The notes under the pieces were generated by a model, which searched no databases, was not told the origin of the DNA, and worked only from the letters and a program-made list of their open reading frames with translations. The position numbers and the translations under genes were made by a program. Of a stretch of DNA of 64,000 nucleotides, positions 7,701 to 36,525 are shown one piece after another. The stretch is taken from NCBI GenBank assembly GCA_019973935.1, contig BMAU01016994.1, positions 944,762 through 1,008,761 of the forward strand, read 5' to 3'. Within the stretch, counting starts at the first letter, position 1. Each line of letters opens with the position of its first letter. Source of the DNA: Trichonephila clavipes. Lineage: Eukaryota.

Positions 7701-7764
7701 GCCGACACCCCACTGTGATCGAAATACTTCTTCTTCTGCAAAAATTGGAAAGGAAGGGTTTTGA
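4747..7764 (+). pseudogene. LINE ORF2 (endonuclease, reverse transcriptase, RNase H), interrupted by one in-frame TGA at 6574-6576 and frameshifted after 7764
   Basis: ORFs 4747-6576 and 6580-7764 are in the same frame (both coordinates are 1 mod 3). They are separated only by TGA followed by GGA, and the junction reads ..LRPSV*GMLYVDDLQ. The downstream frames still encode SWVPGHVGILGNEQAD and WQETWD motifs, so the C-terminus is frameshifted. Confidence 0.85.
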
Positions 7765-8440
7765 TATAATTTTTTCCTGGGTACCTGGACACGTGGGTAT
7801 ACTTGGTAATGAACAGGCTGATATACTGCTGCACGATCAATGTCTGATCACATGCAGCGGCCTGTCTGTTGCCAGGATTTAAAAACTTCTGCACAGAACT
7901 ATATCCATCGTGTATGGCAAGAGACTTGGGATCAAAACAGGTCCTCAACAAACTGCATAGCATTCATCCTTCCACTTCTCATTGGGCAGCACTACCAGTG
8001 CGAAGACACGATGTCCACTTGACTTGACTTCGCATTGGTCACACTCGTTTCACGCACAGGCACCTTCTGTTGGGTGAAAATGCCCCAGAATGTCCCTCGT
8101 GCAAAGTCCCATATTCAGTCTATCATATTTTAATAGATTGTCCCGTTTTTAACCATCATCGCGTCACCTTCTTTCATACATCTGTTTTAACCTTATCTGA
8201 CTTGGTGGGGAATCCCCCCACCGAAAACTTTTTGCCTTCCTTTTAAAGATTGGATTTTTACATTTAATTTAATTTGTATGTTTCTTTGTATTTTTAATAT
8301 ATTTTTATGTATGTATGCATGCATATATGTGTACATATATACTTTTAAACATATATATTTTTAAAATTATACAGCTTTTATTTTAACAAGTGTTTGGTGC
8401 AGCTTGGCCAAATTTGGCCCTTGCGCCACTAAACTTCACA

Positions 8441-8462
8441 TTCACTTCACTTCACTTCACTT
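8441..8462 (+). repeat. (TTCAC)n 3' terminal microsatellite of the LINE
   Basis: ttcacttcacttcacttcacttc sits immediately before the 3' copy of the TSD. Confidence 0.8.
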
Positions 8463-8924
8463 CCCCCACCTCCATTGTGGAAAACCAAGAGGGAGACACC
8501 AGATACTTTTTTTGTCCTCAGTTACTTCCCTAACCAGTTTATGTCGTCTAAAATCTAATTCTTAGTACACAGTTTTGTCGTATTTTCATAAATACCAGAA
8601 ATAATAACATAAATTTATAAAATAAGAAATGGAAATGTGGTTAAAAAAGATTATACCAATTTTATGAAAAAGTGCTCTAATGACCATTTTCACAGAAAAA
8701 TTACGTTTTCTTTTTAAAGATTTGTACTGAAACTTATTATGTTCTTGATGAGAGTTTCTTATAAGGCAATTCAGAAATTGAAATTTAAGTACAATTTATT
8801 TTTACCATCTACATTTTCTTAAACAGGATACCACATAATGTAGCTTATTTTCTGAGCTGTTATTGGTTACCTAACACACACACATGCGCAAAAATTAAAC
8901 AATATGTTTGAAATGAATTTGGAA

Positions 8925-13759: not shown

Positions 13760-15229
13760 TATTCAATCTTTTAAATGTTTTCTTTTTTGTTACATTTTAT
13801 GAAATTTCTCCTGTTGTACATTTAATAGGAATTTTCATTCATGTAAGCATAAAAAAATTTAAAGAGTGAAAAAATGAGTGTATTTTTTTAGTTAAATAAA
13901 AGATTTAATGTTTAGCCTGGGAAATTTTTTTTTTTAAAACTAACAGAAAATGAATTTAATAAAAACAGCTGAAAAATAAAAAGTACGTAAAAGAAATTGA
14001 TACTACTATAATGTATGAGATAATCGGAAAATTTAAATTTAATGAAATGTTAAATTTTGTGTGTGTATGTTCTCTGATTATTAGTAGAAACCTATGGCAA
14101 TTGTGTATTATGCAAAGTCACCAAAGTAGCACCACAGTCACTTTTATCAAGACAATTGTAATACATATACGTTCAACCCTATTTAACGAATTTCATGATT
14201 TAACGAATCTTTCTCTTTTCCCAATTAAAAGGAAAACAAAACAAAATCTTATTTAAGGAATAATAAGCCCTGAATTAGTGAATTACTTTGGCACCTGTAA
14301 TTTTTTTATTAGTTTGTATTGGAAAAAATTGGTTTTTTTTTCAAATGACATTTTTGGCAAGAACAGAATAGGACTTCTTGTAAGCAGCAAATTTGTACAG
14401 GCAAGGGTGAAGGCCATTATTATACTTTACAGGTGCAGATGAGTCATGAATGTAACCCATTATGAGTAGGATAGAAAATTACTCATTCCAATCAACAATG
14501 TGGTTGATATTTTAAGATTTTAACGATAATGGTACATTTCATGACAAACTGCCTATCTGTGCAACTGAAGTTGAAGGAATTGTTTATTGGAGCCAATAAG
14601 TAGCAATTCCAATACTAAACTTGATAATGAAACTAATATCAAAACTCTTACATTTTCTGATGCTTTACATTGTTTGGAAACTGTGAAAACATACCCTTCT
14701 CTTATGCTGCAGAATGTAAATGATACAGTATTTTCTTCTCTGCAAGAAGTCGGAGAACTTTTGTGAGTCAGGAAACAAGAAGACTTTCAAGCATTTAAGT
14801 CAGTAGTTTAAAATTTCCAATTCACCAGCACATAATTCATTAATAATATTTTTAGCTGATGAACAAAAAGTATGCAATTTCTAACTATGGATATTTTTTG
14901 CGTATTTGCTTGTAGAATTTCCATAATGTAAGTGCAAAAAATTTGTATTTTGTTTGGACCCTGGTATAACAAATGGCCCCGATTTTCTGACTGTATATCA
15001 TAATATGCATGAATAATCTTTAAATTTCTAACATTTTGTTTAGGTTAAAAAATAATCAACTTTAAATTTATTTCCAAGTAACAAAAAAATCATAATTGTA
15101 TTTAGTGTTCTGACTAAATTTTTAAAACTTATTTTCATAAGCATGTTTTATAAAGAGAAACATCACTAAAGAATGTTACAAGTATGTTTTACTCTTCGAT
15201 TAATTTTTTTGTAAATATCTCATGAATGA

Positions 15230-15955
15230 TCTCATCTCCTGTTTTGGATGGCTTGCTGTAATTTTCCTTGAGTTTCACAAAACAATTTGCTTTGATCGAA
15301 GTTTCTTTTGGCATAAAATCCTCTAAAGGAACACTTTTTTTTATCCCAAAAGATAGTTACCAAGACCTTTTATTTTGAAAGAGTCTGAATTTTCTGTTTT
15401 TGTGGCTGATGAGGAATGATGCCACTCAAATGAATGGTGCTTGCTTTTTGGGGTGATTCAAGACACCAAGGTCTCATCACCAGTCACAGTCTGATCAAGA
15501 AAGGTACCCCCATTTGTGTTATATGCCAAGAGTGTTAATGCTAAGTCCATTCTCTTAGTTTTGTCTTGGTCGTTCTGAGTTGTTACAGAAACAGTCATGC
15601 ACAAATTTTGCTGTAACTGAAATGTTGTGACATTGTTTCACTAAACAAAAAATGAGAAATGTCTGGAAACAAAATGTGCAATTTGTCAAAAGTTGCATGC
15701 CTGTCTTGCAAGGTCTGATTTCATTTTGACCACTCCAATTGTACAAGGGGGATTTCTTCCAACCTGCTCTGATAGTGCAAACACATTATGAAAGCTAGTT
15801 GATCTCCTGAAAAGTGTAAGAGGAGTGACCTACATGGCTAAAATGTGGGAGCAATCTTTTGTCTAGATGCAGTGAACACATGACTTAATAAACTGGCAGC
15901 AGAAGAGTATAACATGCAAATTCTGAAACTCATTAACAGATACAACAAATGTTGT
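15230..15955 (-). mobile_element. mariner-like transposase fragment (pseudogene)
   Basis: The minus-strand translation gives KVLVTIFWDKK..FRGFYAKRNFDQSKLFCETQGKLQQAIQNRR and ..KTKLREWT.H.., which match the conserved mariner central region. The 5' side abuts the SINE inserted at 15961. Confidence 0.55.
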
Positions 15956-15960
15956 TTTGG

Positions 15961-16355
15961 GCCGTGGGTAGCCTAGTGGTTAGAGCATCGGACTCCAGAC
16001 CGGAAGGCCTGGGTTCGATGCTCGATGTCACCAAATACCCTCCGAGTGCACACGGAGTACGTGCTCATTAAATCAGTGGGTCCGTAGTCTTGTGGGCTTA
16101 TTCACTAGCGCAGGAACTGGAGAATATTTCCCTCCCCTTCAGTTCACTTGCAGAAATTGTGGAGGTGGAGATAGAGGTCGTGTCGCCATCTATCGTCCCT
16201 TCGGGGAAGTTTCTCTGAGCTTAAATCGCACTGTCACCTGTATGGTGCTCAAGGCCAACGACAGGCGTACCTCTTGCCCATGCCACGATGAATTTCAAGG
16301 GCCTCGTTCTGACTACGTCAGACAGGTGGCATTAGTCACAACACAACAACAACAA
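15961..16355 (+). mobile_element. tRNA-derived SINE, copy 1 (tRNA-like head, ~300 bp body, (CAA)n tail)
   Basis: The head is gccgtgggtagcctagtggttagagcatcggactccagaccggaaggcctgggttcgatgc, with A-box and B-box-like motifs. The tail is acaacacaacaacaacaa. It is about 90% identical by eye to 26031-26416. Confidence 0.85.
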
Positions 16356-17654
16356 ATGTTTAAATGAAGGTAGTGATTTTATAGTACAGTGAAGGAAGCT
16401 TCTGGTATGCGACCAAATCCCCCCAATGAATATTGTGCTTTTTATTTTATATAATTAAGTAATTTTTATTTCTTAGTTGACCCGTGTAGTTGTACATTAC
16501 CAGTGGCTTAGTATTTACTTACTTTCTACTATATTAAACCTTTAGGTAATTTAAAGCAAATATAAGAGGAAGTACTTTTTCCCCTTTAATTGTGTTAAGC
16601 TTTTTCATATTATGGCAAGAGATTGTTCATCTTTTATCAATTAAAATAAAATTTTCTTGTTTAGCAAATTTAATTAAGTTTTCTGAAAAGGATTTTAGAT
16701 GAAAATATTTTTGGGTATAATTTTTATGTTCAATTTATGAAATGTCAATTTTAACAGTGTTTTTTTTCATCATAATTGATGACCATAAAAAGTTAAAATA
16801 GATGAAAGTATTTTATTCATAAAGCGAAATAATAATAACTTATGATAGGTTTTATATGATTGTATTGAGAAATTGAAGAGAATGTTTTTTTTTCCTGTTA
16901 TTTCATACATATATAACAAAACTTTTTATAGTTTGAGGTAAAAGATTGTTGTCAATGGAACCATTATATTTCTTGACTATTGGAGTTTATATAAAATATG
17001 AGTTCACAAGTTGCCTATATGAATATTTATAGCTGTAGTTTTATTTTATTTTATTTAACTTGATAATGGGCACCATATCCAATTGTTGATTATGTATAAG
17101 TTTAAGAGAAAAAGAGGAATAAATTATAAAGAGATGTAGCTTATCCACACACATTTTGGATCTGATTTAATTGAAATTTATTTAAAACATTACACTGCAT
17201 TCCAAAGAAATGTTCTTTACTGTATTAAATGCATTTCTTAAATAATTGCTTACTAATTTTAAATAATCCATTTGCTAATTGCAATGCTAGTGAAAAACTT
17301 TTTATAATTGGTCTGCATATTGTGTTTAGTCATTTAATTTGATAGAGGCTGTTGCATTTGTTTTGTTTTTGCTTCTGTTTTTTTATTGTATTCTTCTCTC
17401 TCTTTTTTTAGAAAGGTTTAGGAAGCAAACCAATATAAATTCAAATCTTACCTTTTATAAATTTAGCAAAAAGGAAAACAGGCTTAAACAAATGAAGGGA
17501 AAAAAATCTAATATCAAATTAAAGGTTTTCAGAGAAATTAGGCCAAATGCACCTATTTAGAACAAAAATTGCATTGTATAGCTTTAACAGAAAAGTAATC
17601 ATTGTTATTTTTTTATTTTAAAGAAGCATTATATTTATATAAATATATTTGCAG

Positions 17655-17850
17655 GGTTATTCATGGACCACAAGATATGATTATTATTCCTCCTTATCAT
17701 TATTGCATCATTCGCAATCCTGTGCTTCGAAATTCTGAAAGTGCTGTAGTTTATGATAGTGTTGGTCAAATCAAGTTAAAACATGCTGATTTGGAAGTGA
17801 GATTGCAACAAGATCCTTTTCCATTATACCCTGGAGAAGTTATTCATGTG
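17655..17850 (+). CDS. MVP: MVP exon (partial CDS, vault repeat 2 region): [35 protein letters not shown]
   Basis: The acceptor AG is at 17653-17654 and the donor is GTATGA at 17851. It is colinear with human MVP ..[31 protein letters not shown]. The first base completes a codon begun in an upstream exon that I did not find. Confidence 0.85.
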
Positions 17851-18854
17851 GTATGAAAATTAATCATAATTTTAAGTATTTAAATAAGTGTGTGGATGTT
17901 AATTTTTTTTTAAAAAAATCTATTAATATCCAATGATTCTTGGTAGGTTCATACCAATTTTTTTTTAAAAATTAGGAATAAAAAATCCACATGTAACATT
18001 TGGAACATGTAAAATTTGTCCAAAAATTTTACATGTTCTGCTTATGTGCAGTTTTCAGTTCTCTATTTCAAAGTATTTTTATTCCTGAAAAGGATTCCTT
18101 ATGAGTATTTTAAAGTTTAAATAAGATTTATAATAAAAATGACAAAAAGCAAAATTGTTTTAAAAAATTGTTTTTAATATATATATGTACTACTGTGTGG
18201 CTAACTTGTTTTGACATACGTCTGGTTATACCAATCCTAAAATCCAGCATAAAATGCACACTTTTAACACAAATAATAAGATCGAAATTTACAGGTGTGC
18301 TTTATATGTCGGGTATAAAAGTGAGAGCTTTAAAAATTAAAAAAAAAGATGAATATAGGAAAAAAATAGATCTCTATACAGATCAAAATAGAGTTTATTT
18401 AAAAGAAATAACATTTCTTATGAACTTAAAGGGTTGTAATTCTACAAGCATGCTATTTTTTTTATAAAGCTTTGAATAATACCTTGAACAAATGACTTTA
18501 AAACATAAGAGCATTATGCAAATGCATTCCAGGTTTCCTCTTAAAAAAGGAGGTGCACATTATACGGAACTTTCTTAGACTATGAAATGCTTATTTTTAA
18601 CTGACAATTATATCTTTAAAATATTAATTTTCATAGAAAAAATTAATATTCTCAAATCAATTTTTTTAAATACTGTTTCATTTAAATGTTTTTAATTATA
18701 TATATGGATTTTACTTTGTTAAAAACTTTTAAACTAATAAATATATAACGTTTTTAGTATTTTAAAAATTTAATTTTTTTAAACACCTGAATACAAGATT
18801 TTGTTACAGCTTAAATAAATTTAAGTTAAAAAATTAAATTTTTTTACATTGCAG

Positions 18855-18975
18855 GGAGTGACCCCGTTAACAGTTGTACCATCAAATACTGCCTTGCGAC
18901 TCAAGGCAGTTCGAGATTTTGAAGATGATACTATCAAAAGAATTGCTGGTGATGAATGGTTGTTTGAAGGACCAG
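18855..18975 (+). CDS. MVP: MVP exon: [41 protein letters not shown]
   Basis: The acceptor is gcag at 18851-18854 and the donor is GTATG at 18976. It matches human [41 protein letters not shown]. It ends in phase 1. Confidence 0.9.
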
Positions 18976-19171
18976 GTATGCTATTCACATTTTACTAAAG
19001 AATGTATTGCTTTTTTAATGCAAGATTGAAACATTACTTTGCATATTTCATTACAGTATCGAATAAGTTGTTTCTGAACTTAATTTGTACAAAGTATTAT
19101 GTGTTTATATACACACATTAGATGTATGGGTATATATATGTATGTTTGTATATACAGTTTATGACCAATAT

Positions 19172-19525
19172 TTTTTTCCCTGCTAATCGGCTGCATAATT
19201 GCGGCTAAGCCTTTGCAGCATGGCAAGTCCCCAAATGTGAGAGCCATTTCATGGTTGTCATCTAGTGGCAGCTCTTGCTATTGAATTTTGATGCTCGAAT
19301 TAATTTTAATTCAAGCTCTCGTTGGATGCTGAATGTTTGCAGTGATTTTAATTTCGTCAAGAGTAACAGCCAAACTGATACTCAAGGGAATTTTTACATG
19401 CCATATAATCTTATGACATTGGTGCCTATGATTTTTGCATCTAGAAAATCTATTAACTCCAGCTGGGATCGAACCCGCAACCTTGGGCTCACAAAGCAGG
19501 CACGCTATCTTTGAGCCACTGAGCC
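19172..19525 (-). mobile_element. tRNA-derived SINE (unrelated family), minus orientation, with a 12-bp TSD
   Basis: The reverse complement of 19440-19520 is a tRNA-like head (gtcggctcagtggctcaaagatagcgtgcctgctttgtgagcccaaggttgcgggttcgatcccagctgg). The minus-strand poly-A tail corresponds to ttttttt at 19172-19178. The element is flanked by tatgaccaatat at 19160-19171 and 19526-19537. Confidence 0.75.
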
Positions 19526-21347
19526 GACAATATATATGACCAATATCATACAAAATACAACACCAACATAGAATGGTCAGAAAGTAAAGAAACTTGGCAA
19601 GCAGAGAGAAACATTGATCATGAGCGATCAATCAATGATTTTTCAGATAATACTCATAATTTGGGGAGAACAAGTCAGCTCATTAGGTTTGAGGACCTCC
19701 AAAGACAATACATGAGGCAGCATGTCTAAGAAAAGAATAAAAGGGAATACAGATGGCATTCGGAGGAATAGCTCTCCATCTCATGTCAACTCTCTCTCTC
19801 TCTTTTTTTTATACAGCCCTTACAGGGCATGCAAAATATGTCCAATTGCTTCCCAGATCTGTTTGGTTCAGGAGAAATCTTGGAGAATAATAGCCAGGGG
19901 AAAAATTTTAGCTGATGTGTGCAATCAGGTGTTTCCCTGCTGGTAATGAGCATTGGGCACCCTTTTGAGGAAGGAGAGTGTCACAAGCCACAGATCATCA
20001 TCTAGGTATCGCTAAGCCTTCATAATGCTCTGAATATGAACCAGAGGGGATCTACTATCTTAGGCAATTGTGTCCCAAACCATACAAGCAACATTACTTG
20101 GTGAAATGTTCCACAGATACAGCCAAATTGGACTGCCACCTTCCTACATTGCAACTATCATTAGACAAACAGAAGCATAATTTGTTTAATGATTCTGATT
20201 GATATGGTAACATATCACATGTTGCAAATACAGTGCCATAAATGGCTTGCAAGGCCACCATCACTTGTTAATGGATGTCTAAGGATGTAAATATCTGCAT
20301 GCTGACATTGCTGTGGCCTCATTGACACCCCTCAAACTTGCCACTTTTCCTCATTTGAACCACCTTTGTCTCAGCCAATTTGCTGTAGATGCATCTAGGT
20401 GAGCATCAGCAGAAATTTGATATCTGAACCAACTTGCCCTTCACAATCCAGTCTCCTTGCAATATCATTTGTCTTCTGGACTTGCCTCCATTCATGGTGG
20501 CAAGGCATTCTCTGCTATTATGTGTGTCCTCTGAGGCAAGAACAAAATTTCAACAATCCCTAACAGAAATAACATAATTATTACCTATTGTTCTGTTTCT
20601 TTCCATTAATGTGTGCTGAAGCATTTCACACAATTTGTATTGCTAAGTAAGGTTCGCCTACCATGAAATTGGCATAATTTTCTGGCTACTTCTTCTTTAG
20701 TTGTGTTGAATTTTCTGTGTATATACATGTTTAATAATATGAACTTTATATTGGTTCTTGATTTTTCTTTATTAATATGTTTTGTAATAATTATAGTTAA
20801 ACATTAAAATAATACCAAAAAACAAATAAAAATGTTTTTATTATTTTATAACAAATTTTCGTTTGATATACATTTTACTCTTTATGGAATTGTAATACAT
20901 GTATATAACATAAAATTAAAAAAAATATATGGGAATGCTCATATTAATAAAATATGTTTTCTTGAAAACCTGATATTGTTTCAATGCAGTGTTAATAGTG
21001 ATAGCTAAAATGTTTCTTGTTGTGTAAACATAATTCTTTATTTTGCTTGTAGCTTATTCTTTCACTGAGCATGATGCTAATTAAAGTGACTTTCCAATTA
21101 TAGTTTGTTGAATCATTTTAAGTGAAAAATTTTTGCTTTTCTTTTTTTCTAATACAAAATGTATAAAAGTTGCTGCAAATTTTTTTAAAGAATTTGAGCT
21201 TTAAATCACTAGGAGGAAAAATACACTTATTCCAAAACTAATAAACTATAATATTCATTAAACTTTTTGTAGGTAATTTAATTGACTGCTTTTCATTTAG
21301 CAGCATTAATTACTCCATCTGTTAAAAATCTTCTATCTACTTCTCAG

Positions 21348-21574
21348 GTACCTTTATTCCACGGAAAGAAGTAGAGGTATTGGAAACTATTTCAGCTATT
21401 GTGATTAATCCTAATCAAGCCCTCAAACTAAGAGCTACTGCTGAAACTGTAGATAGGAATGGAAAAGAAAGAGTAACTGGTGAAGAATGGATAGTGAAGA
21501 AAACTGGAGCATATTTGCCTGGAGCTTATGAAGAAATAGTTGATGTAGTTAATGCTTATGTATTAACAGATAAA
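21348..21574 (+). CDS. MVP: MVP exon: (G)[75 protein letters not shown]
   Basis: The acceptor AG is at 21346-21347 and the donor is GTAAGT at 21575. It matches human [50 protein letters not shown].. Confidence 0.9.
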
Positions 21575-24008
21575 GTAAGTTATTTGGAAATTTAGTTCAA
21601 CTCTTTTAAATATTTTTATGTGAAAAACTGATTACAAATGAATTATCAAAATCCTTTTTAAAAAAGAAATGTTGAAGAAGTATATTGAGTTTTTGTTATT
21701 CCCCTTGCTCCCTATGCATTTGAAATGAAAGTTAGACAAATTATGTTTTAGTGTGTGATTGAGTCACAACCTACTTTACAAATTAATAGTTTTCCAATTT
21801 TAAAATTTTGAATATGCAAAATTTCATAATGTATTATATTAATAAAGATATTTGTAATTATGAGACTCTTTGTTAAAAGGCAGTTCTCAAAATTCCTTAT
21901 TTTCATTGCCAATTCATTGTATAATAAACATAATTATGTAATTTTTTTGGAGGAGGAACTTTATGTTAAAACACTTTGTGTAGAAAGTCATACTTGAGAA
22001 CTCAAAACCGATAACTGTTTCAAGTGAGTCATGTCTTCGATTCTATTGAAGATGTGCCAAACACTAAAGCTGATCCATGTTAAGTCTGTCAGGGCTCATA
22101 GTCATTCGTCATGTTGAATATGGAATTTTGAAGAATGGGGTCCGAGCACAGGTTTCACTTTTTATTCTTTCATCATGGTTCAGAATTACAAGTCTTACCA
22201 GTAGCTTTAGTGTTGTATCCAACAATAATAGAATAAAATTTTAAAAAATCATTGAATGAGAGAAATCTCTGCAGATATATTTATAGTGAACTGTGGTTTG
22301 TAATCAAAGCTAAAAAACTTATTTTTGACTTTTTAAATATTTTTCCATAGTTCATTAAATTTAATTAGTCCTTAACACTGAGTTTTCAATGTATTTTTCT
22401 GATTTATATATATATAATTTTATATATATTCCTCCTAAATATTAATTTTTAATACCATATATTTCCTTGTATAATTCAAGAAGTTTTGTAACTTTTTTAA
22501 AACTAAAGTATGTGATTGGCATATATATGGATTTGCTAACCCTGAAAAAAAAAACTTAGTTTCTAAAAAACAATTTTTTTTAGAACATTTCCATTAGCCA
22601 TACACAAATGATTTTGATCTCTTAACTTTTTGGAAGTTTTTGAATTCAGTTATTTTTTTTTTTATTCAAGAAGTCATACGAGTCCTTTGAAGTTGGCATA
22701 ATAATCAGAGATTCCATAAAATTTGTAAAATTTTTCCATGTGTTGAGGTGCTTAAATATATATGATCATCATGTGGCAAGTTTTTCATCCAGAACATGAA
22801 ACATAGGCAAATAACCACAAACAGCCTTTTTATTTTGTCATCTCTAATTCTAGATGTTTTTTCCCTCCCATCCTTGAACTTGTTTCTTATTTACAAAGAA
22901 ATGTTGGACAGAAATGCTCTTAATAGAACTTTCAGAAAACAGAAACACTTGTAGTTTGATATAAGCTATACTGAAAGTTCTCTTCCCATTAATTTTCCAG
23001 AAAAAAGTGGCATGAAAAATAATACAAGTACAGATAGTTTGCAAAATAACAAACGATACCAATGTTTATGTCATCCAGATATAGCTTTTCTTTTTTATAT
23101 TATAATAGATTATATTAAAATTTAAAGCTTCCAAGAAGAGAGGAGAGAGAAATTTAAAAATTTACCTCTCCAATTCTGTTGTTCCTGAACGCTATTATTA
23201 GTTTTCCTTATTTAGCTTTGTAATAGTTTATTATATACAGATTTGTTTTTAATAAGTGCTACAATGAAACCATTCTTTTCCTGTATCAATGTATTATTTG
23301 TTTATATTTTTTTTATGAAAAGAGAAATTTATTTAGTTGATTGATAGTTATATTTTCATGAGTAGTAAAATAATGATTTTGTAAGGGTAACAAAGTCAAA
23401 TCACAGATCTTTTTTTAAAAAAATTATTTTTTTTAATTTGGTGATCTACTGATTAGTTTTAATTACTCATCTATATATTTGGAAAGTGCATTTATATATT
23501 TTAAATTAATAGCTCAATGGTGTTTTTACAATATCTTTTTTCTCTTGTTTACAAATCTATTGACTTAGGAAACATATATATTCAAAGAAATCTTTAATAA
23601 GACTAAAACTAAGTAAAAAGACTTTGTAACATGAAAAACATTTCATTTTACAAAGTCCATTCAAATAACTTGTTTTAACTCTTAAAGTATTTTTCTGCTA
23701 GTCATCTAAATAGCTAAAAAGTTATCACTTTTGATGAATGTGTTATTGTAAAGTTGAAAACAATCTCATTTTCCTGTTCTCCATAACCATTTTCTATAAT
23801 TTTGGAAGAAAAAGTAGAGAGCTATAAAATTTATTGTGATCTAAAATAAATATGATCCCAACACCATTTAATAGACTCACACAGACAAAATAACTTTTTC
23901 GGTTGAGTAAAATAGTACAAAGGTTAAAAACTACTTCATTTCTAGCAAAATACAGATTTCTTATAGTGTTATGGTTTAAAATTCTTAATGTACTTTTTCT
24001 TTTTTAAG

Positions 24009-24245
24009 GAAGCTGTTCATGTTAAAGCAAAGAAGTCTTTTGTAGATGAATTTGGAAAAACAAGGAAAAATGGGGAGGAATGGCTAATAACATTAGCAGA
24101 TACTGAAACTTTCATTCCTGGTGTTTATGAAGATGTAGTAGGAATTGTAAAGATCACAACTCTTTCTAATCGTCAGTATTGTGTTATTCTGGATCCCTTG
24201 GATACAGATGGTAAACCTCAGTTAGGAAGGAAAAAACTTATAAAG
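24009..24245 (+). CDS. MVP: MVP exon: [79 protein letters not shown]
   Basis: The acceptor AG is at 24007-24008 and the donor is GTTTGT at 24246. It matches human ..[60 protein letters not shown]. Confidence 0.9.
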
Positions 24246-25117
24246 GTTTGTTTTTTACCTAATTTATTCTTGTGAAATATGGTGATTATTAATTTTACAG
24301 TTTCATTAAAAAGGTTTTTGCATACTCTTTCAAGGTTAATATTGCTTGACTTAAATTTTCATTTTTGGGGTCAGTTGTTTCATGAAATAAATTTAGAATA
24401 AAAGTGTAATCTGATATTGAATCTTAAAATGTTTTTTAATTTTAAAAAAAAAATTCACTACGAAATTTTCAAATCACTTAATGTTATCAAAAATAAAACT
24501 CGTTATCATTTCTGTCATCAGTGCTATTATCTCTTGTTAGATTAAATGAGCAATTATAAAATTATATGATTTATAGATTGTTTTTACACTTTGAATTGAT
24601 TCTTTAAAGATTAATTCGTTTGCTTAAATTTTTTTTAAATCGGCATTTGGTTTGAAGTTTATGTACATTTATTATAGTATATGATTTTTAAAAATTAATA
24701 ATAGTGTTTTAAATAATTGTAAATGTTTTATCTAGAAGATGAAGTTCTAAATTTAAGTGATCTTTATATAATTATGATTTGTGAGATTTACAAAATATGT
24801 ATAAGAGCGCATATATATTTTGTGCAGGTTAACATTTGTGAAAGTGAAATTTATGCTTTTAAATATATATATACTTAAACTAGTCCAAATTGTTAAAAAT
24901 AAGGAGTTTAAATTACATGTTCATATAATTTGCATATTAATTTTTTTTTTCTTAAATTTATCTTTTTGCTTTATTCTTTAGATACATATCAGTTATATAC
25001 TTGGCACCCTTCTCTAAATTTTAAAATATATTTTAAATATGGTTGTAATGCAATGGTTTTTAATTTTTGATGCCATTTATAAAGTAGCTTACATTTTAAA
25101 TTCATTTTTAAAATTAG

Positions 25118-25249
25118 GGTGAAAAATCATTTTTCTTGCAACCTGGAGAAAAATTAGAAGCTGGTATTCAGGATGTTCATGTTCTAAGTGAAAATGAAGG
25201 TATTATTTTAAGAGCAAGAGAAGCATTTCAAGACAATAGTGAAACTCCT
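25118..25249 (+). CDS. MVP: MVP exon: [44 protein letters not shown]
   Basis: The acceptor AG is at 25116-25117 and the donor is GTAAGT at 25250. It matches human [33 protein letters not shown].. Confidence 0.9.
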
Positions 25250-25701
25250 GTAAGTGTTTTTTTTTTATTGTAATAAAATGTTAAAATTTCCAGAAATTTC
25301 ATTCTGCTCATTAAAAGTATTGATTTCAAATTCTTTATTTTCCTATTTGAATTCTATATAGTTTATTAATACCATTAACTGAAGGGAAAAAAATTTCAAA
25401 CATGTGTATATTAATAAATTTAGCTCTAAAATTGAAAATAAGCTATATATTGTTTTATACGTATGTGAATCTCAAGTTGACTCCTAATGTATTCAGTGGA
25501 AAAGTCTGCTAACAATAGATATTGTTTTAACTGTATGCAAAATACATTTTATCAAAGTGAGGATAATTCTTTTTCTTTTTTTTACTTTATACTTTCCATT
25601 TTCTCAAAATTTGAGTTTAAAGTTATTTTATGAAAACTGCATTACTTATATTTAGGCTTTTTATAGACAGTTATTAAATTGCATTGATATTTGTTTTCTA
25701 G

Positions 25702-25851
25702 ATTTTTAATCGTAATCCTGGAGACCGTTGGATGATTAAAGGTCCTACTGAATACATTCCATCAACTGAAGTAGAAATTGTTACCAAACGATATGCTATT
25801 GCACTAGATGAAAATGAAGGAATATATGTGAGAAATATTAAGTCTGGTCAA
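25702..25851 (+). CDS. MVP: MVP exon: [50 protein letters not shown]
   Basis: The acceptor AG is at 25700-25701 and the donor is GTAAGT at 25852. It matches human ..[45 protein letters not shown]. Confidence 0.9.
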
Positions 25852-26030
25852 GTAAGTAGAGATCAACAGCCTTTGTTTGTATTAAAAAAGATACTTCAGA
25901 ATTTTTTTCATTTTCAGTGAGAAATGCTTTGAGATGTAAGAATTTTGAACAAATCTTGTATAACATTTACTGAAATTTGAAAATGTTTAACTGCAGAATT
26001 TAAGATATACTTGTTTAAGTTATTTATAAG

Positions 26031-26416
26031 GCCGTGGGTAGCCTAGTGGTTAGAGCATCGGACTCCAGACCGGAAGGCCTGGGTTCGATGCTCGATGTCA
26101 CCAAATACCCTCCGAGTGCACACAGATACGTGCTCGGCAAATCAGTGGGTCCGTAGTCTTGTGGGCTTATTCACTAGCGCAGGAACTGAGAATATTTCCT
26201 CCCCTTCAGTTCACTTGCAGAAATTGTGGAGGTGGGAGATGGAGGTCGTGCCATCTCCATCGTCCCTTCGGGAGTTCCTCACCGAGCTTAAATCGCACTG
26301 TCACCTGTATGGTGCTCAAGGCCAACGACAGGCGCACCTCTTGCCCATGCCACGACTTCGTGGGCCTCGTTCTGACGACGTCAGACAGGTGGCATTAGCC
26401 ACAACAACAACAACAA
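26031..26416 (+). mobile_element. tRNA-derived SINE, copy 2 (same family as 15961), in an MVP intron, with an 11-12 bp TSD
   Basis: It has the same head and body as copy 1 and a (CAA)n tail at 26401-26416. It is flanked by gttatttataa(g/t) at 26019-26030 and 26417-26428. Confidence 0.9.
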
Positions 26417-28107
26417 GTTATTTATAATATGATTGTGTGTGTGTGTGTGACTATAACATCCACTACATTTGTAATTTTTTGTTACTTTCTTTAAGAAAAG
26501 GACTTACTTTCAATAACAGCTAACTTTTCAAGAAGGTCAATCAGTTGTTTAATGATCACGATGAGGAACTTTCTAATTCCGACAGTGTTCCAGTTCTGTT
26601 CTAGGCTTGAGTTCTAGTTTGACTAAAGACTACTGTGTTTAGTAATATTATAATGGGTACTGCTACATGTTAACTTTAGCTGGACTGAAAAAATTCTCTA
26701 TTTAGCCTAGTATGAAAGTTAAAAAGGGAGGTATTCTTTCATGTGTAGTCCCTTTAATTCAACTGTAGCTCAAAATTATGAAGTGTCACCTGTAGTTTTC
26801 ATCTTGTTCCAAATAATGTAAATTATAATTAAAAAATTTCAGTATTTATTGTAATTACAAAATATTTTCATATATATTTATTGTTTAAATTTATTCTTGG
26901 GTTTCTTTCATGTGTCCCTTTTATTACAAATAAACCTTACTGAGCAATACTTTTACAACATATTCGTAATAATAATACAGATTTTTTTTATGTTGGGGTT
27001 TACTGTTTCACTGCAATGTGCTATTAATAATATTTAAGCTGTTCCGTAGCTTTTGTGATCCATGTCCTCTTGCAATGCATACTTTGAAGGTAGTAAACTG
27101 TTATGCAATACTTGTTAAGATCCATTAGCCTTGTTACTTTGTGGCTACTATTACTTTGTGTGACTTGTAAACAAAGTAATTGTTCTAAGAGTGAAAGAAT
27201 TAGTTCTCTTTTGTTAGTCAATCATCTGGTTTATGGACATTCTGTAACACAATGACATGATAGTTGTCTTAATGATGGTTTGTGCATACCATCAAGTTTC
27301 TTCAAAAAGAGGCTAGCCAACTGCTAAAGCTGTAGCATTGATGTTGCAGAATTTAAATCCATTGTTGGTCATTACATTTAGCTTTCTACCTCATGTTAAG
27401 TTCTGGTAAACACAGGTTACAGAATCTTGTATGTGGATTCTACAAACCCCCAAAAATGATTTTTTTTTCATCTTACTGACAAGACCTTGATATGCTAGCA
27501 TATATTACTAACATTGAATGTTCTTGATGTATGGATGTTTATATTTCTATAATGTATATCTTTCTGGATGCTGACTACTTTTTCAGTACATCCTTGTACA
27601 TTATATATTGAAAATAAAATCTAAAATTCCAACTTCAAAAATGCTCTTAAATATTAGACCATCTCTGAAGTCAAAATAAAGCCAAAGAAATGTTTGCAAC
27701 CAAGTCAAATCATAAGTAATAATAAAGATGAATAATGAATTTTAATGAGTTTTGTTTTCCATTTAATTTTTGCTTTTAATCATAAATTATAATCTTTTTG
27801 AGTTATTTTACTGTGTATTTCATTTTAATAAAACAAAAAAAAATAGCCATGAATTGTTCTTATATGGCCTTTGAATCTTTATTAATATGATTTACTACAA
27901 TGTAGCTTTTTCATAGAACATATCTAGTGCATTGTAAAATGTTTATCTATAAGAATGAATTAATTTTTTTTTCAAATCTTTAAAAGGATTTAACTATTAA
28001 CTTGTTTTATATTTTATTATAAATTTCTTTATTAAAATAATTTGATTCTATTAGAAGTTTATAATTATATTATTAAGCTTAAAATTACATTTATTTCTTT
28101 ATGTCAG

Positions 28108-28370
28108 GTTCGTCTTATTTCTGGTTCTACCTATATGCTTAATCAAGATGAGGAACTTTGGGTAAAGGAATTGCCACCCCAAATAGAAGAATTGTTGAAT
28201 AAAGGTCATGACCCTTTAAGTGATAGAGGCTCCTGGAGACAAAAGGCAGATACTGCTCATTTTAAACAAAAAGCTACAAAATCAGAAGAAGAAGGAGCCA
28301 GAGCTGTTACTTTAAGAGTTCCACACAATGCAGCTGTCCAAATTTATGATTATAAACAAAAAAAGTCAAG
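28108..28370 (+). CDS. MVP: MVP exon: [87 protein letters not shown](R)
   Basis: The acceptor AG is at 28106-28107 and the donor is GTAAGT at 28371. It matches human [61 protein letters not shown]. It ends in phase 2. Confidence 0.9.
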
Positions 28371-31300
28371 GTAAGTATTTTTAGAAATAAAGATTTGGAA
28401 CATTTCTTTTTAATTATTTGAATGTGTATTATGTCTTGATTGATTCTGGAGAAGGCATAACTGATCTTTTTTTTTAAACTTATTTGTGTTACTTTTAAGT
28501 TATGCACTATTCAATCAAAACGAATTAAAACTTCTATGATATTTTCCTAAAAGTGCACATTATTTTTTCACGTTTTGACTGCCGTGGCAGTTTTTGGGAT
28601 TCCAGTGTAAAAAAATTTGAGTATCCAGTGTGGTACAAATTACACAACTATTACAAAATTCATATTTACTCTGATATACTACAAGTTTTATTATAGGTGC
28701 TCAAATATGGCAAGTCAAAAGAAAAACTTCCTGATAACTTGTAAATGGTGTCTTGGGCAATAATGGAAACTACAAATTAACTAGTGGCAGTCAAAATGTT
28801 AAAGTTCTTTTGTATATTTCGTTTGCTATGGGAAAATTAAGAGTAATTTCTATTAGCTGCTGAAATTATATTTGTATTAAAGAACATAAAACAGACTACA
28901 AAAACTACTTTTATGGAAGGGGTTTTGTAGGCAAAAAATGTATGGGGATAAAAAAGAGTGAGGTTTGAAACTTCAAATCTCTATCTTGTGTATGCCATTG
29001 TATGTAATACTTATCAAAAGAGTGGTATATTTTCTGTTAAAATTTCATCGATGAATTAAAAAGCATGAAAAAATGTTGAAAGTATGAATGTTCCTTTAAA
29101 AATATTCCTAATTTGTTTAGACTAGGGATGGCCAATGTGTGGCACATGTGCCACAGTGTAGAACAGCAAAGTTGTATCTGTGGCATGTGAAGACTTGCTG
29201 AAAATTCAAAATATTTGAAAAGATGATAATAATTAGCAATTTTTTTTAACAATTGTATTGAAATGCGGCTGTTTTAAACTAAAAAATACACTCAAAATTT
29301 ATTTGAAATACACTTAATTAATTAAATTACAATGGGAAATAATCACATGTAGAGACTCAATCTCTAATGTTGTGTATGCTGGCTTTCCGATATTATGGAA
29401 AATTTAAATAATTTTAATTTATAATCACAGAGAGAAAAGATTGTATTTTTCCTACGCAAGTTAAGTCCTATAACTTTTATGAAGAGTTTTTTGCTTTTGC
29501 AAAAAAGGTTAATTAATTCAGGAACTATTTACCAAAGTTAACAATTCTCCAAATGACGGATTAAAAAATTTAATATTCATTTTGCAGGATTCGTTCAGTA
29601 CTAAGTTTGCTAATTTTCAAGATGATAAAAAATGCTGTTCTTTTCACAAATCTTTTTTAACATCTCTGCAAGACTTTGATTATTGCCCACCTGAAATCGA
29701 AATTGTGACCTACAACACAATATATACTGAAAAACAAGTATAAGGAAGCTATTTCAACTGTAAATGATCCGAATTATGTTGAATTTTGGAAATTTGTACT
29801 AACAAGCAATTCTCCAAATTTACACGATTTGGCTGTCATATATTGCTGTAGGTTTAGATCAACATATATTTTGTAAACAAATGTTTTCTGTTATGAACAA
29901 AATAACATTAAAAACTCAAAATTAACTGATATGCACCTAAAACAATTTTGTTAGCATCTTGAAGAGATAACTCTGATCTCTACAGTGGCGTAGTGGATTC
30001 TAGGGGTTCAAAGCCTGACTGACCCCAATTACGTAATCCTTTTAAAAATCGGGGCCCGTGACTTTGCTGGGAGCTCCTAATATTTTCCATTATGCCACTT
30101 CTAATCTAATCCTAATATAGATTACTTAATAAAAAAAAACTGCAAATTCAAAAATCACATTAAGCAAATACTGACTATTTAATATTTATTTAGAATTAAA
30201 TCATTCAAGTTACTCCCTTTCATTTTATACCAAATATAACTGATTGAACCTGTATAAAGTTAATTAACAATAAAAGCTAACTTTGTACTTTTGTCTTATT
30301 TATTATATTTTTAAAAATTTGCGCTACTTATATTTGCATAAAAAAAGGAGTTATTTGTGCGAAAATCCCATGATAAATCTTTATGTAATTATTTTTTTCT
30401 CCTTTTCATACTTTTTTTTTTGTTGAAAATGCAAGTGGCATGTGTAGGGTTTTTTTTATCAGATAGTGATACTTCCCCAAAAAGTTTGGACACCCCTGGT
30501 TTAAACCTTGTGATCATGTTAGTTCTTAGATTATCTTCTCTCTATTGAAATCACTTATAAATATGTTCAATTATAATCAGAAATGAAGAAGGAATTAATA
30601 CATATTCTGGTTTCAACAAGTTTTTTAAATTTCCTGTTTTTTTTGGAACTCCAGATCTATTTCCTAAGTTATCTTAAGATTTGTGAGTTATTCAAAAAAA
30701 TTGCATTAGGATTTTTAAAACTTAATTCCTTCTTTTTGATTGAGTTTTATTAATTGTTTATATGAAAGCAATACCTTTTCAGCTTTTATTCTAAAAGGTT
30801 AAATAGTGAATCATTTTGATATGTTTAATATATTGTTTTTAACCTAATATATTTTTTGAGAGGAATGCTAAATATTTAAAAATTATATAAATGTTCTGGT
30901 TTATTGTGAAATATCTTAAATTGTATTATTTAGGAATTAAAGGTATTTTTCAGATGAAAAAATTCGTTAAAAATGTTTTAAACTTATGTGATTTAAAATG
31001 GTTTTAAAATTTCAAATTTAATGTTCTTATTTTCTTCAGAAAGATACATTAGATTGTATGTATGGATATACATTATATTGTATTCATTAATGTATTATTT
31101 TTGTATATATAATATATGTTCATGATTTTTTTCTAGATGTACTCGCATATAGTATTATTGTATGTCAGCATACTTTAAATTACCTCAGTCTGTATTATTT
31201 ATTTTTTAATGTATCAACTTTGTGAAACTTTCATCAAATACATCTCCTATTTGAAATATTTATTTTGTAAAATATTTTAAATAAACAAGTGTTTTATTTT

Positions 31301-31378
31301 TAAATTCACATTGATTTTAATAGTATGTGAATCAGTACCCAGTAATTTTATAATATAAAAAAAATTATTAACTTTCAG

Positions 31379-31576
31379 AGTTATTTTTGGTCCAGATCTT
31401 GTAATGCTAGCACCTGATGAACAATTTACACAACTTTGTCTTTCCGGTGATAAACCAAAAAGACCAAATGTTATTAAAACTCTCTGCTTACTCTTGGGAC
31501 CTGATTTTTGTACAGATATCATTACTGTTGAAACTGCTGACCATGCTAGACTTTCATTGCAACTTTCATATAATTG
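31379..31576 (+). CDS. MVP: MVP exon: (R)[65 protein letters not shown](W)
   Basis: The acceptor AG is at 31377-31378 and the donor is GTTTGT at 31577. It matches human [67 protein letters not shown]. Confidence 0.9.
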
Positions 31577-32829
31577 GTTTGTTATTATTCTTTATTTTTT
31601 GTTAGCATTAATTTTGTGAAAATAATGAGCTTTTATCGTAATTAACATGTTAATCACTAAAAAGTATTTTTTTTCAATGTTAACATTGGAAAAAAAAACT
31701 TTATTAAGTTAACTCATTCCATAAATAAAATATTATAAAATTATTCATTACTGGATTTGAAAAAAATTATTAGTTTTTAAGATGGTATTATTCTAAACAG
31801 AAATATTAAGTTTTTAAATATGGTGGCTGTATAAAAAAGCTTTTGGATAGTTAATAGTTTTTTAAAAATATATTTAATGTATTTTTTCGAATCTAAACCA
31901 CACCTCTAATTCTCAACAAGTTTTTGTAAAAAAATAAAAAATGGTTTATAAATATCAGATATTTACAAAAATTTAAATTGAGAACAAATAAAAAGTGAAT
32001 AATTAATTTATTTCACCAGTATTAAAAACTTAAATACATGCATAAGCCTGTAATTGTTCTAGTATCATGTTCAATTTCCCGAATCCAATGAATTTTTCTT
32101 CCTGCGATTCTAAGCCACATCCAATTTTCAGTATCATTTACATTGGGGAAAAAAGTGCAGCTTAGATTTGAATAAATGCAGAAGGAATGTATTTAAAATT
32201 TACTTTGTTATTATGATGTTTTATTAAGTATTTCACACATATTTCTTTTTAAGATGGCTTAAAATTAATTAAGCTTCTTTCACTTCAAAAAGAAGTTTTC
32301 CACATTTATAATTATGAGGCAGTAAGATGGAAAGTTGAAAAACTAGATTAAAAAGAAAATTCAAAAATGATAAGTTTTACCTTAAATCATATTGTGAAAC
32401 TGATTTTTACTATTTGACTTATTTAATACTTTAACACTATATTTTTTTATTAAATTGCCTTTGTCATTGCATAATGCTTCCTTGTTTAGACTATCCAATC
32501 TTTCAATCCTCTTGTCTATTTTCTCTCTTATCTAATCCTCTTATCTTATATATTTTTCTATTGTTAGTTAGTATGGTATTGGAATTATTGTCATTCATTT
32601 AAATCTTACTTTTTAAGACGGCATATGTAAGTTTTTATAGTACCAGTAGAAAAATAAAGTTTATAATCGCATTAATTAATTAAATATGCAGCCATTTTGT
32701 ATTATATCAAATGTCCTGCATTAAGGTTTAAAAAAGAAAAGAAAAATTGTTCGTAACAGATTGGATTTTGATTATGATATTTGGATGTCTTTGTTTTATT
32801 TTAATAATGGCTTTATTTCATCTCTGTAG

Positions 32830-32971
32830 GTACTTTGATATTGGTGATAAAAGCCCTGAAGCAGCTGCTAAATTATTCAGTGTTCCAGATTTTATTGGTG
32901 ACCTTTGCAAAGCAATAGCTTCCAGAATTCGTGGCTCTGTTGCTGGGACAAATTTTGATGATTTTCATAAA
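32830..32971 (+). CDS. MVP: MVP exon: (W)[47 protein letters not shown]
   Basis: The acceptor AG is at 32828-32829 and the donor is GTATAT at 32972. It matches human [49 protein letters not shown]. Confidence 0.9.
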
Positions 32972-35747
32972 GTATATACTCCAAAGATACTAATTATTAT
33001 TAATTTTTAATTTAATGTTAGCAAACTTATAATTTGTTATGTGGTTCTATAAATTGAAAATTACATTGAATTTTATGTTGACTTTACCTACTGAGATATT
33101 ATGTGTTTGAGAGAGAAAATGTTAAATTGATTGCCATTATAGTACTAAGCTTTTACTTATAGTTAAACAGCAGTGTGTAAAATGTCCTTTTATTGAACTT
33201 ATTGTTCTGTACTATAGCACTAACCATGTATATATGTTTTATGTATGCTAAATATTTTCCTATACATTCTTAATTTTATTATCTAATGATTAAATATGAA
33301 TTGTCTATTCATAATTAGAGTTCAGTTTTTAATTTAAGCCATATGTAACATAGTTAAGTAAATTATTCTGTGCTCTGATCTTATTTGGCATTTTAAAGTT
33401 AAATGTTTATTTTTTTTTAGATATAGGTATTATTCAATTGTTATAAAAAGTCTTTCAGTAGAATTTTTAAAAATAAATTGTATAAAAAAAGGGTGTTTTT
33501 AAGTGCCGTAAAGTGAATTTTCCAGTATGACACACATTTAAATGAGATTTTTATTTATGGATGTTTTTATGAGTTTCAAAATAAAAGTTACCATTAGGTC
33601 TCAATAGATCTGCAAACAAACCCAGCTTTAAACGTAATTGCAAAATTATTTAATGAAAGTAAGAAATGTAAACTGGTGAATTGATATATATTATATAAAT
33701 TTATGCAGAACTGTATGTTAATCGTCTTTATTTATATGGAAAAATTTTTTATCATTGGCATCTAGAGATATTTGATAAATTACTAAAAGGGTAAAATTTT
33801 AGTATTAATTACTAATTCTGATGTTAGTTGAATGTGAAAGAGAAATTAGGGGCAATAATTAAGTGACAAGAATAGTAGGGTAATTTTTAAATATACTACT
33901 CTATCTTAATATTGGAACTTTTTCATAATTTTAAAATAAAAATATTTTTTGAAGTTCATTAAAAGTAATTAGGATCAAGTAAAATTATATCTGTTATGTA
34001 CAGAAAGTTGTTGATACATGAATTATGCACCTTTTAAAAATGGAATTGTTTAAAAGCAATGTATTGTTTTTTTTCAATATGTTCAAAGTTTCAATATATT
34101 ATATTTCAGTATCACTTAAGTACTCTTCTTTGAACTTAATACATTTGTCTTTTTTTTTCTTTTTCTTCATATTTTTCAAACTTATCAGTTGTAATGGTCG
34201 TCAACAACACTTATTTGTATCTTCGTTTCTTCTGTGTTAAATCTGTCTCTTCATGTCACTTTCATTTATGGGAACAAAAAAAAGCACAGAACAAAAGTAA
34301 TAGAATGAAGTTAGTTGAGTAAAGGGGGTGTGGTACAAGGGAGACATTTTTTTGCCCAAAACTGGCGCAATGAGATTGCTGTGGCTTCAGGTGTATTGTG
34401 ATGGATAAACTAGTTTCTTGTTTGGCACAAATCATACCTTTTTTATTGCACCTTTTTACATAATCTTCATTAAGTTTTCTATTTAGAAATTTAAGTAATC
34501 TGACCTGATCGAATAAACTCCAAACGCACAATCTCCCTCACATTAAAGAAACAATTATCATTATACTGGTATTTTGATTTCACTTGATGAGCTTTTTTGA
34601 TGGCTTGATTGCCATTTGGTTTCGAGATCATAAGAATAGCACTATGTCTTGTCATCAGTAACAACCTTGGAAAAGAAATCTAAGTTGTGCTTCGGAACTC
34701 AGTTCTTTACAAGGTAAGTTCTTTCTAAGCATATTATATTTCCACTTGAATGAAGAATCCAAAGTGCAACACAAAAAAATCCATTTTGCTACAACTCTTC
34801 TCATTCCTAAATCTTCTGTTAATTGCACTTAATTGAACCAAGCTCCTAGATAATCTAGGTAACTTCCCCATTTTATTAATGGTCCATCATTAGTCTGCAA
34901 GAACAAGGTCATAAATTTGTTTATCAATGAGAGAACTGCTTGTGCATTGTTTTTTTAAATAGCCTATCCGTGTAAGGTGTTCAACATTGTGACAGTAGTT
35001 TATCTGATGTTTTCCAAACAGGAAATACATAAAATTTCATAGTTACTCACTGTTCTCTTAAATCAGATATTATAAAAAATGAGTGAAAATGGGGAATTGC
35101 TTTTTTTTAGAAACTTCCACTTTCAAAATGAGGCCTTTTGGTGGACTAAACTCAAAGAGGGATGCTCTACACTCATCTATCAAGAAAGAAAGTGCACACC
35201 ATAGAAGCTCTGCCCCCCTCTCCCCCAAAGTATTTTTCGGGGGTTTTGAGGGGTACCCTCTCACATTTCACAATTTAATCAATGTGATTATTTTATATTC
35301 TGGATTGTTTGCTTGTAAACAAAATTTTGAATGCTAAATAATTAAGATTTGTATTGGAATTTGAAATTGTGATGGATTTGAAAAATTGTCAAGAAATTTA
35401 TACCAATGCATTTTATAGTTTCAACCACTATTTTGAATCTTAAAAGGAGTCTTTGTAAGTGATTATATAAAATATTTTCTTACATTTACATTATTTAGTT
35501 GTATATATGATCATTTAATTTTATTTGTGAAACTAAATCAATATATATAAAACTAGGTAGTATGATGCAAGAAAATGTTTTTTGATTTTGAAATTTTTAA
35601 TGAGAAAATTATAGTGTTTAATTAGTTTTTTAAAAAATATTCAGAAAAAGAAATTCATTAAAAAAATGCCGTACATTTCTACAAAATGCAAAACTTTTTC
35701 AAAAATTTTGTAGTTCTGAATATTTTATGCATCATTTCTTCCTTTAG

Positions 35748-35959
35748 AATTCTGCCAAAATCATACGCACAGCTGTTTTTGGATTGGATGAAAACAAGAA
35801 AGTTAGAAGAACTTTTAACTTCCCTCAAAATAATCTGAATATTACTAGTGTGGATATTCAAAGTGTTGAACCTGTAGATCAACGAACCAGAGATTCATTG
35901 CAAAAGTCTGTTCAGCTTGCTATAGAAATTACCACTCAAAGTCAAGAAGCCACTGCTAG
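35748..35959 (+). CDS. MVP: MVP exon: [70 protein letters not shown](R)
   Basis: The acceptor AG is at 35746-35747 and the donor is GTAAAT at 35960. It matches human [62 protein letters not shown]. Confidence 0.9.
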
Positions 35960-36525
35960 GTAAATTTAATATTCATGAACTATCCATTTATTTTTTTTAA
36001 AAAAAATTTATCATTAAATACAATATATTGAAAACTATTTTTTTTAGATTTTTATTTCTTGTTCGGTTTTATAAATCATTATGACAAATTCAATTTTTTT
36101 TCTTTGATAAAATTAGTTTGTATTAAGCATATTTGTACAAATATATTGCCAAAAATTTTGGTGTATGTAATTTATATGTACAATTACTTAAATTTAAAAA
36201 ATATTTTTCAGCAATAAAATAATTATCAGTCTCAAATTTTAGACATCTCAAATCAAGTGTAATACTTTAATTGAAATTAGTTATATGGATTATATATACA
36301 TTTTTGGATATTAGACTATGCTTGCAAATAAGCCTTGAATTGATACGCTCTGCTTATTTAAAATGATTATTTGATTATATTGATTTAAAATTATATAATT
36401 TGTTCAATGTGATTGTTTATTTTTAGAAGCAGTGAAATTTTTTGTAGTAAATTTTGTGCGTAAATGTGTTAATCTAATATAAAATGGGATAGAAAAATTA
36501 AAAAGAGTTAATATAGAAATACTAG

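Follow-up and report, generated by a model that had tools for sequence, protein, structure and literature searches.

A tRNA-derived SINE family with a (CAA)n tail in the orb-weaver Trichonephila clavipes, represented by two copies in and upstream of the major vault protein gene

Introduction

A head of tRNA origin with a body and a simple-repeat tail after it is the commonest architecture of short interspersed elements (SINEs), accounting for 41% of families (PMC3531059). In SINEBase, such elements are described as shorter than 1 kb, typically below 700 bp, interspersed and non-tandem, and as identical to a tRNA at 60% or more of positions across a minimum of 60 nt (PMC3531059). Here we analyze a 64,000-nt stretch of contig BMAU01016994.1 (assembly GCA_019973935.1; positions 944,762 to 1,008,761 of the forward strand), hereafter the window, which holds two copies of a tRNA-derived SINE that ends in CAA repeats. 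The element resembles a generic tRNA-derived SINE in its length below 700 bp, its head with A and B boxes, its unrelated body, its variable simple-repeat tail and its target-site duplication (TSD), as well as in its dispersed high copy number and its subfamilies with internal deletions; we found no structural difference from the generic form. Size, interspersion, tail and an indication of the promoter agree with the SINEBase description, and copy number does so indirectly, via protein entries. It is an ordinary, lineage-specific SINE and not a new kind of element, and it may already be deposited in Repbase or Dfam.

The chelicerate SINE Ruka, from ixodid ticks, is a tRNA-derived, tRNA-Ser-like element of ~180-195 bp that is abundant in gene-rich DNA among genes (PMC3160391). 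The present SINE is similar to Ruka in its chelicerate host, its tRNA origin and its setting among genes, whereas Ruka is shorter; the two are compared by description only. In the same genus, the genome of T. antipodiana holds ~106,000 SINE copies under the RepeatMasker labels tRNA-Deu, MIR, tRNA-Core and tRNA (PMC7976613). These belong to the same element class, and the T. clavipes family probably falls under one of the T. antipodiana labels. No description of this or any individual spider SINE family was found in the searchable literature, in which spider genome papers give only percentages, and four 17-21-mers of the element were not found in the searchable full text.

At the 3' end, the element invites comparison with stringent-type pairs of a SINE and a long interspersed element (LINE). 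In the eel pair UnaL2/UnaSINE1, (TGTAA)n follows a stem-loop, and (TAA)n forms the end of the I element; (CAA)n tails are recorded for some algal L1 and RTEX LINEs (PMC3747384). The T. clavipes SINE resembles such pairs in its non-poly(A) tandem-repeat tail of 3-7 units, placed after predicted small 3' stem-loops, and the variation in tail length among copies (3-7 units) is as expected from slippage. It differs in its repeat unit, CAA, and the likeness is limited to the tail and the predicted stem-loops; stringent pairs are defined by a 3' end that SINE and LINE share. The head is also similar to that of MIR, with a local score of 59 against a shuffle maximum of 29 for an uncurated MIR consensus. 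A relation of the body to CORE-SINEs, which carry a ~65-nt CORE domain after the head, or to MIR was rejected, with scores of 17-29 against the same uncurated MIR consensus lying within the shuffle range.

Results and Discussion

Two insertions of one element

The features that define the two copies are as follows.

15960-16355, plus strand: SINE copy 1, 396 bp, with tRNA-like head, body and (CAA)n tail
26030-26416, plus strand: SINE copy 2, 387 bp, same architecture as copy 1
15969-15979 (copy 1) and 26039-26049 (copy 2), plus strand: A box, TAGCCTAGTGG, matching TRGCNNAGTGG at 11 of 11 positions
16012-16022 (copy 1) and 26082-26092 (copy 2), plus strand: B box, GGTTCGATGCT, matching GGTTCGANNCC at 10 of 11 positions
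16337-16355, plus strand: (CAA)n tail of copy 1, CACAACACAACAACAACAA, with the CAA repeats CAACAACAACAA at 16344-16355
26399-26416, plus strand: (CAA)n tail of copy 2, with (CAA)5 at 26402-26416
26019-26029: left TSD of copy 2, GTTATTTATAA, perfect over 11 bp
26417-26427: right TSD of copy 2, GTTATTTATAA, perfect over 11 bp
15942-15953: candidate left TSD of copy 1, ACAACAAATGTT, ambiguous, with six extra bases (GTTTTG) before the head
16349-16360: candidate right TSD of copy 1, ACAACAAATGTT, ambiguous, overlapping the tail

A reading of the sequence alone (hereafter the sequence-only reading) had proposed two ~390-bp copies that share a ~300-bp body, begin with a tRNA-like head containing A and B boxes, end in CAA repeats instead of poly-A and, in copy 2, are flanked by a clean 11-12 bp TSD. 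Each of these points holds in our analysis. The copies are 92% identical by BLAST and MAFFT alignment (of 400 columns, 363 match, 23 mismatch and 14 contain gaps), and the whole body is common to both loci. Both start with GGCCGTGGG (at 15960 and 26030) and run to CAA repeats that end at 16355 and 26416. The 61-nt head string occurs exactly twice in the window, at 15961 and 26031, on the plus strand and with no mismatch, while shuffled sequences are expected to contain it zero times.

Differences between the copies are not spread evenly: the first 94 nt are identical, and all 37 differing columns lie beyond them (P ~3e-5 if uniform). With 52-55% G+C and 20-22 CpGs, the elements stand out from the surrounding introns, whose G+C content is ~25-33%. 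Tandem Repeats Finder and a pattern search located CAA repeats in the 64 kb at the two SINE 3' ends only, where they reach (CAA)4-5. No further copy or fragment of the element was detected elsewhere in the window by sensitive BLAST with a word size of 7.

The duplication that flanks copy 2 extends to 13 bp if the final AA of the tail is counted as target-derived, and in such AT-rich DNA an 11-mer would match by chance at fixed positions with a probability of ~1e-6. The copy 1 candidate, which starts with ACAACAA, would fit microhomology priming between target and tail, a suggestion that we offer as speculation. A (TG)8 microsatellite at 26434-26449, which starts 7 bp past the right-hand TSD of copy 2, probably belongs to pre-existing target DNA. 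We are highly confident that both window copies are insertions of a tRNA-derived SINE family whose host is the orb-weaver Trichonephila clavipes or a species very close to it.

A dispersed family with subfamilies

The size of the family was read from mis-annotated database proteins as a proxy. Open reading frames (ORFs) of 91 and 110 aa overlap the SINE copies, and the 110-aa ORF over copy 2 has 109 protein matches, all named 'hypothetical/uncharacterized protein TNCV_...', all from T. clavipes and each on a single contig, the contigs being mostly of different lengths. A HMMER scan of 1.84 billion cluster representatives, which stand for a collection of ~15 billion proteins, returned 142 clusters (50% identity); the 10 new ones that were looked up are all from T. 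clavipes. The two protein searches together give 200 distinct entries (P0038-P0237), and the source was T. clavipes in 119 of the 119 checked. Exact-string scans of metagenome, genome and viral contig collections with body and head strings returned no match.

The multi-copy nature of the family is borne out by these 200 distinct entries, each translating the element; judged from this indirect count, and with the window taken as T. clavipes DNA, the SINE is present hundreds of times or more in the T. clavipes genome. About 50 of the 200 entries read ...GPRSDYVRQVALA, followed by 3-7 residues of T (ACA), N (AAC) or Q (CAA) and then by unrelated sequence. These ACA, AAC or CAA codon runs (T3-7, N3-6 or Q3) come after ...VRQVALA. 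At the other end, 22 of the 200 entries pass from unrelated sequence into AV-GSLVVRASDSRPEGLGSM, the translation of GCCGTGGGTAGCCTAGTGG..., and the 5' boundary common to family members is GCCGTGGG.... Since ~50 entries keep the 3' end and 22 keep the 5' boundary, both element ends and the CAA tail are family-wide features.

The two window copies derive from two subfamilies, i.e. from two source genes. Copy 1 represents the majority subfamily, with the 3' region ...CCACGATGAATTTCAAGGGCC...; its motif HDEFxGPRSD is common to 57 T. clavipes entries. Copy 2 represents a minority subfamily that is 4 bp shorter in the 3' region (reading PMPRLRGPRSD) and has ATG in place of ATA in the central stem, a variant that also appears in entries P0038, P0041 and P0044. 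A shorter form of the family with an internal deletion exists among the entries as well. The differences between copies 1 and 2 seem to have arisen mostly between the source genes, and the identity of the first 94 nt together with the perfect TSD of copy 2 suggests that both insertions are fairly young. The identical 94-nt starts are consistent with a promoter conserved in the source genes and with insertions that have decayed little.

For a spider SINE family, exact boundaries are now available, together with its promoter, its tail and markers of its subfamilies. The current understanding of SINEs is left unchallenged, and our reasons for regarding the family as important are modest.

Proposed mode of transcription and movement

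The following features bear on how the element may be transcribed and moved.

16308-16322 (copy 1) and 26371-26385 (copy 2), plus strand: 3' hairpin 1, TCTGAC-NAC-GTCAGA, predicted in both copies, loop base T or G
16326-16339 (copy 1) and 26389-26402 (copy 2), plus strand: 3' hairpin 2, GTGGC-ATTA-GYCAC, predicted in both copies, adjoining the CAA repeats
3398-8463, plus strand: near full-length LINE (non-LTR retrotransposon), with an (ACTTC)6 tail at 8433-8463

Neither TTTT nor AATAAA occurs inside either copy, and the first TTTT downstream lies 22 nt past copy 1 and 59 nt past copy 2. The lack of an inner TTTT combined with a flanking T-run is the arrangement required by a retroposon that RNA polymerase III (Pol III) transcribes. 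We propose that Pol III would start at the internal A and B boxes of the degenerate tRNA head, would continue across the ~300-nt body and the (CAA)n tail, since no TTTT interrupts it, and would halt at the flanking T-run. Target-primed reverse transcription (TPRT) by the enzyme of a partner LINE could then turn the RNA into insertions at new sites. By analogy with stringent-type pairs, this enzyme probably recognises the 3' hairpins and the CAA repeats, with slippage on the repeat; such recognition would explain why the CAA tail is short and varies in length, and why the TSD measures 11-13 bp.

The hairpins are predictions from the two DNA copies only. In the predicted hairpin 2, a G-C pair of copy 2 is replaced by G-U in copy 1. 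A central hairpin is predicted as well, formed by GGAGATAGAGG...CCATCTATC in copy 1 and by GGAGATGGAGG...CCATCTCCATC in copy 2, and is kept despite the differing sequences. The sequence-only reading had taken the trinucleotide-repeat tail as a hint at a specific partner LINE. The CAA tail and the predicted 3' hairpins supply a defined motif for locating a partner LINE in spider genomes. The LINE at 3398-8463 was considered for this part and rejected: its tail is (ACTTC)n, and its 3' end shows no similarity to the SINE.

The fuller reading, in which the SINE is young, possibly still active, restricted to T. clavipes and driven by an undescribed stringent-type spider LINE ending in (CAA)n, is one that we consider rather unlikely. 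Its young, T. clavipes-restricted side is suggested by the species source of all 119 checked matches, by heads that are intact and identical, and by the presence of at least two subfamilies. Several observations weigh against our main reading, the insertion of a tRNA-derived SINE that depends on a LINE. The last 80 nt of copy 1 fold no better than shuffled sequences (z -1.1), the 3' hairpins are short, and hairpin 2 is lost in the family variants that read ...ALENNN and ...ASENNN. No clean TSD was found at copy 1, and the family size is a proteome count and not a genome count. Moreover, the window offers no LINE with a 3' end like that of the SINE, its only LINE being the one at 3398-8463.

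We also considered that a SINE-like retroposon might have been moved by a reverse transcriptase that is not of the LINE type, for example that of a Penelope-like element. Penelope is the largest 'LINE' category in the congener T. antipodiana, with 49,982 copies making up 1.33% of the genome (PMC7976613), and in the window we saw no LINE that ends in (CAA)n. Against this, a TSD of 11-13 bp and a short simple-repeat tail placed after hairpins fit TPRT by a stringent-type LINE, and nothing in the data is specific to Penelope, so that we regard this route as improbable. If, in turn, the reading of a young SINE served by a (CAA)n LINE is true, the two elements would form the first characterised SINE/LINE pair of nephilid spiders and would provide an insertion-marker system for them.

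Protein entries that translate the SINE

NCBI annotates the matching loci as genes for 'hypothetical protein TNCV_...', and the ORFs of 91 and 110 aa over the copies, with 200 database proteins matching, might be taken to indicate a real protein-coding gene family. The entries, however, use different frames (EVEIEV versus GGGDRGRVAIY; HDEFRGPRSD versus ATMNF), different starts and different stops, and they run into unrelated flanks and into the codons of the CAA repeat. No Pfam family matches the SINE-derived entries. Indels between copies 1 and 2 shift the reading frame, which counts further against a coding gene family. We regard this reading as refuted for practical purposes, with a negligible chance of being correct.

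Because the entries vary in frame, start and stop and lack a Pfam family, we conclude that at least 200 T. clavipes 'hypothetical proteins' are annotation artefacts and not genes. The frame-variable translations of the SINE amount to a systematic contamination of the public T. clavipes protein entries. Some SINE-derived entries are fused to neighbouring sequence and carry names such as 'Tcb2 transposase' or 'secernin-1'.

The tRNA-like head

The head contains one further feature of note.

15983-16023 (copy 1) and 26053-26093 (copy 2), plus strand: stretch of the head complementary to itself, folding by prediction as a 15-bp hairpin and not as a cloverleaf

The A and B boxes are separated by 32 nt, within the 30-60 nt that is used as a criterion for SINEs. 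It had been anticipated from the letters that the head would score as a pseudo-tRNA or score low, and this is what was observed. ARAGORN finds no tRNA gene in the window, and no Rfam family reaches its gathering score anywhere in it. A relaxed search of the head alone with Rfam RF00005 gives a full-length alignment with 14.2 bits (E 1.3), in comparison with a gathering score of 29; in this alignment neither the acceptor stem nor the T stem is paired, and CUCCAGA occupies the anticodon loop. The head by itself has a predicted folding energy of -35.3 kcal/mol (z -4.4 versus shuffles). The parts that correspond to the anticodon arm and the T arm are now mutually complementary (GAGCATCGGACTCCAG / CTGGGTTCGATGCTC). 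Weak Rfam matches to snoRNAs and miRNAs near the SINE copies (E 0.5-1) were taken as chance.

In a comparison with an uncurated panel of human tRNA sequences, stretches of 60-68 nt of the head show 68-71% identity to Lys-CTT, Glu-CTC, Met, Ile and Arg-CCG; these values lie numerically above the SINEBase limit of 60% over 60 nt but serve as a lead only. Human tRNA-Trp from this panel comes closest only around the anticodon arm, with 22 of 27 positions shared, again no more than a lead. These similarities do not single out one parent tRNA.

The anticodon loop, the 22 of 27 identities to the uncurated tRNA-Trp and the intact A and B boxes would be compatible with a functional tRNA gene, possibly Trp-CCA-like, next to an unrelated repeat. 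The negative ARAGORN result and an RF00005 score below the gathering score instead mark the head as a pseudo-tRNA; it is not a tRNA gene. The unpaired acceptor and T stems and the long-hairpin fold also speak against a functional tRNA, and head and body always occur together, so that the reading is refuted and we give it practically no weight. What would have contradicted the SINE proposal, namely a single-copy, bona fide tRNA gene with no body similarity between the two loci, is excluded by the body that both share.

Nor can we give any appreciable probability to a local segmental duplication of a stretch holding a tRNA pseudogene, for which the presence of just two window copies on the same strand, 10 kb apart, might be cited: the similarity halts sharply at GGCCGTGGG and at the CAA run with unrelated flanks, the TSD of copy 2 is perfect, and the 200 dispersed T. 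clavipes entries, each on a single contig, have the same ends, which refutes it.

Genomic setting

The tRNA-derived SINE lies in and next to the gene for the major vault protein (MVP), which was delineated with Pfam and by tBLASTN with an uncurated human MVP sequence.

17632-46268, plus strand: MVP gene, at least 12 exons over ~29 kb
17632-17847, 18858-18977, 21347-21616, 24006-24245, 25118-25234 and 25720-25854, plus strand: first to sixth detected MVP exons
28093-28380, 31377-31580, 32831-33025, 35739-35960, 39440-39688 and 46173-46268, plus strand: seventh to twelfth detected MVP exons

Copy 2 is located in sense orientation inside the MVP intron 25855-28092, and the first detected exon begins 1.3 kb downstream of copy 1. 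No exon encoding residues ~1-34 was located, and a database search with the MVP exons returned no T. clavipes MVP protein. The closest outside matches to the exons, 83% identical in amino acids, are two Logan contigs (L001 from SRR23967709 and L002 from SRR30809926). Both are distant, arachnid- or arthropod-like contigs that hold very compact MVP genes with short introns and without SINE copies; they have no comparable introns, and an orthologous empty site was not found through them.

The minus strand carries, at ~15150-15800, a decayed fragment of a mariner-type transposase whose N-terminal side points towards the head of copy 1; its stitched translation matches PF01359 (24.1 bits, E 3.3e-5). 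The sequence-only reading had placed copy 1 at a mariner fragment's 5' edge, which is correct in the orientation of the mariner itself; the fragment adjoins the copy 1 head. Nothing recognisable as a continuation of the mariner was found beyond copy 1, and the window contains no paralogous mariner copy that would define the pre-insertion site of copy 1.

The LINE at 3398-8463 has an ORF1 with a CCHC knuckle and an ORF2 encoding endonuclease, reverse transcriptase and RNase H that is split at 6576/6580. With dozens of T. clavipes 'X-element/jockey' proteins the ORF2 product shares 85-97% identity, against 64% for a protein of Nephila pilipes and 50-62% for proteins of Araneus ventricosus. These values place the window in T. 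clavipes or a very near relative of it. The high identity to many T. clavipes proteins suggests that this LINE belongs to a young, abundant family.

A second, unrelated tRNA-like, SINE-looking element was noticed in an MVP intron on the minus strand at ~19300-19530 (GGCTCAGTGGCTCAAAGATAGCGTGCCTG...GGTTCGATCCCAGC); it holds the only perfect B-box match of the window. The remaining transposon remnants comprise mariner/Tc1-like transposase fragments, a piggyBac-type (DDE_Tnp_1_7) fragment and a Gypsy-type pol (RT_RNaseH, integrase-like), at the positions below.

36636-37438, minus strand: transposon remnant
49779-50374, minus strand: transposon remnant
55536-57033: transposon remnant
41647-43126, minus strand: transposon remnant
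62206-63907, minus strand: transposon remnant

The Gypsy-type pol holds a 36-bp tandem repeat at 62263-62341.

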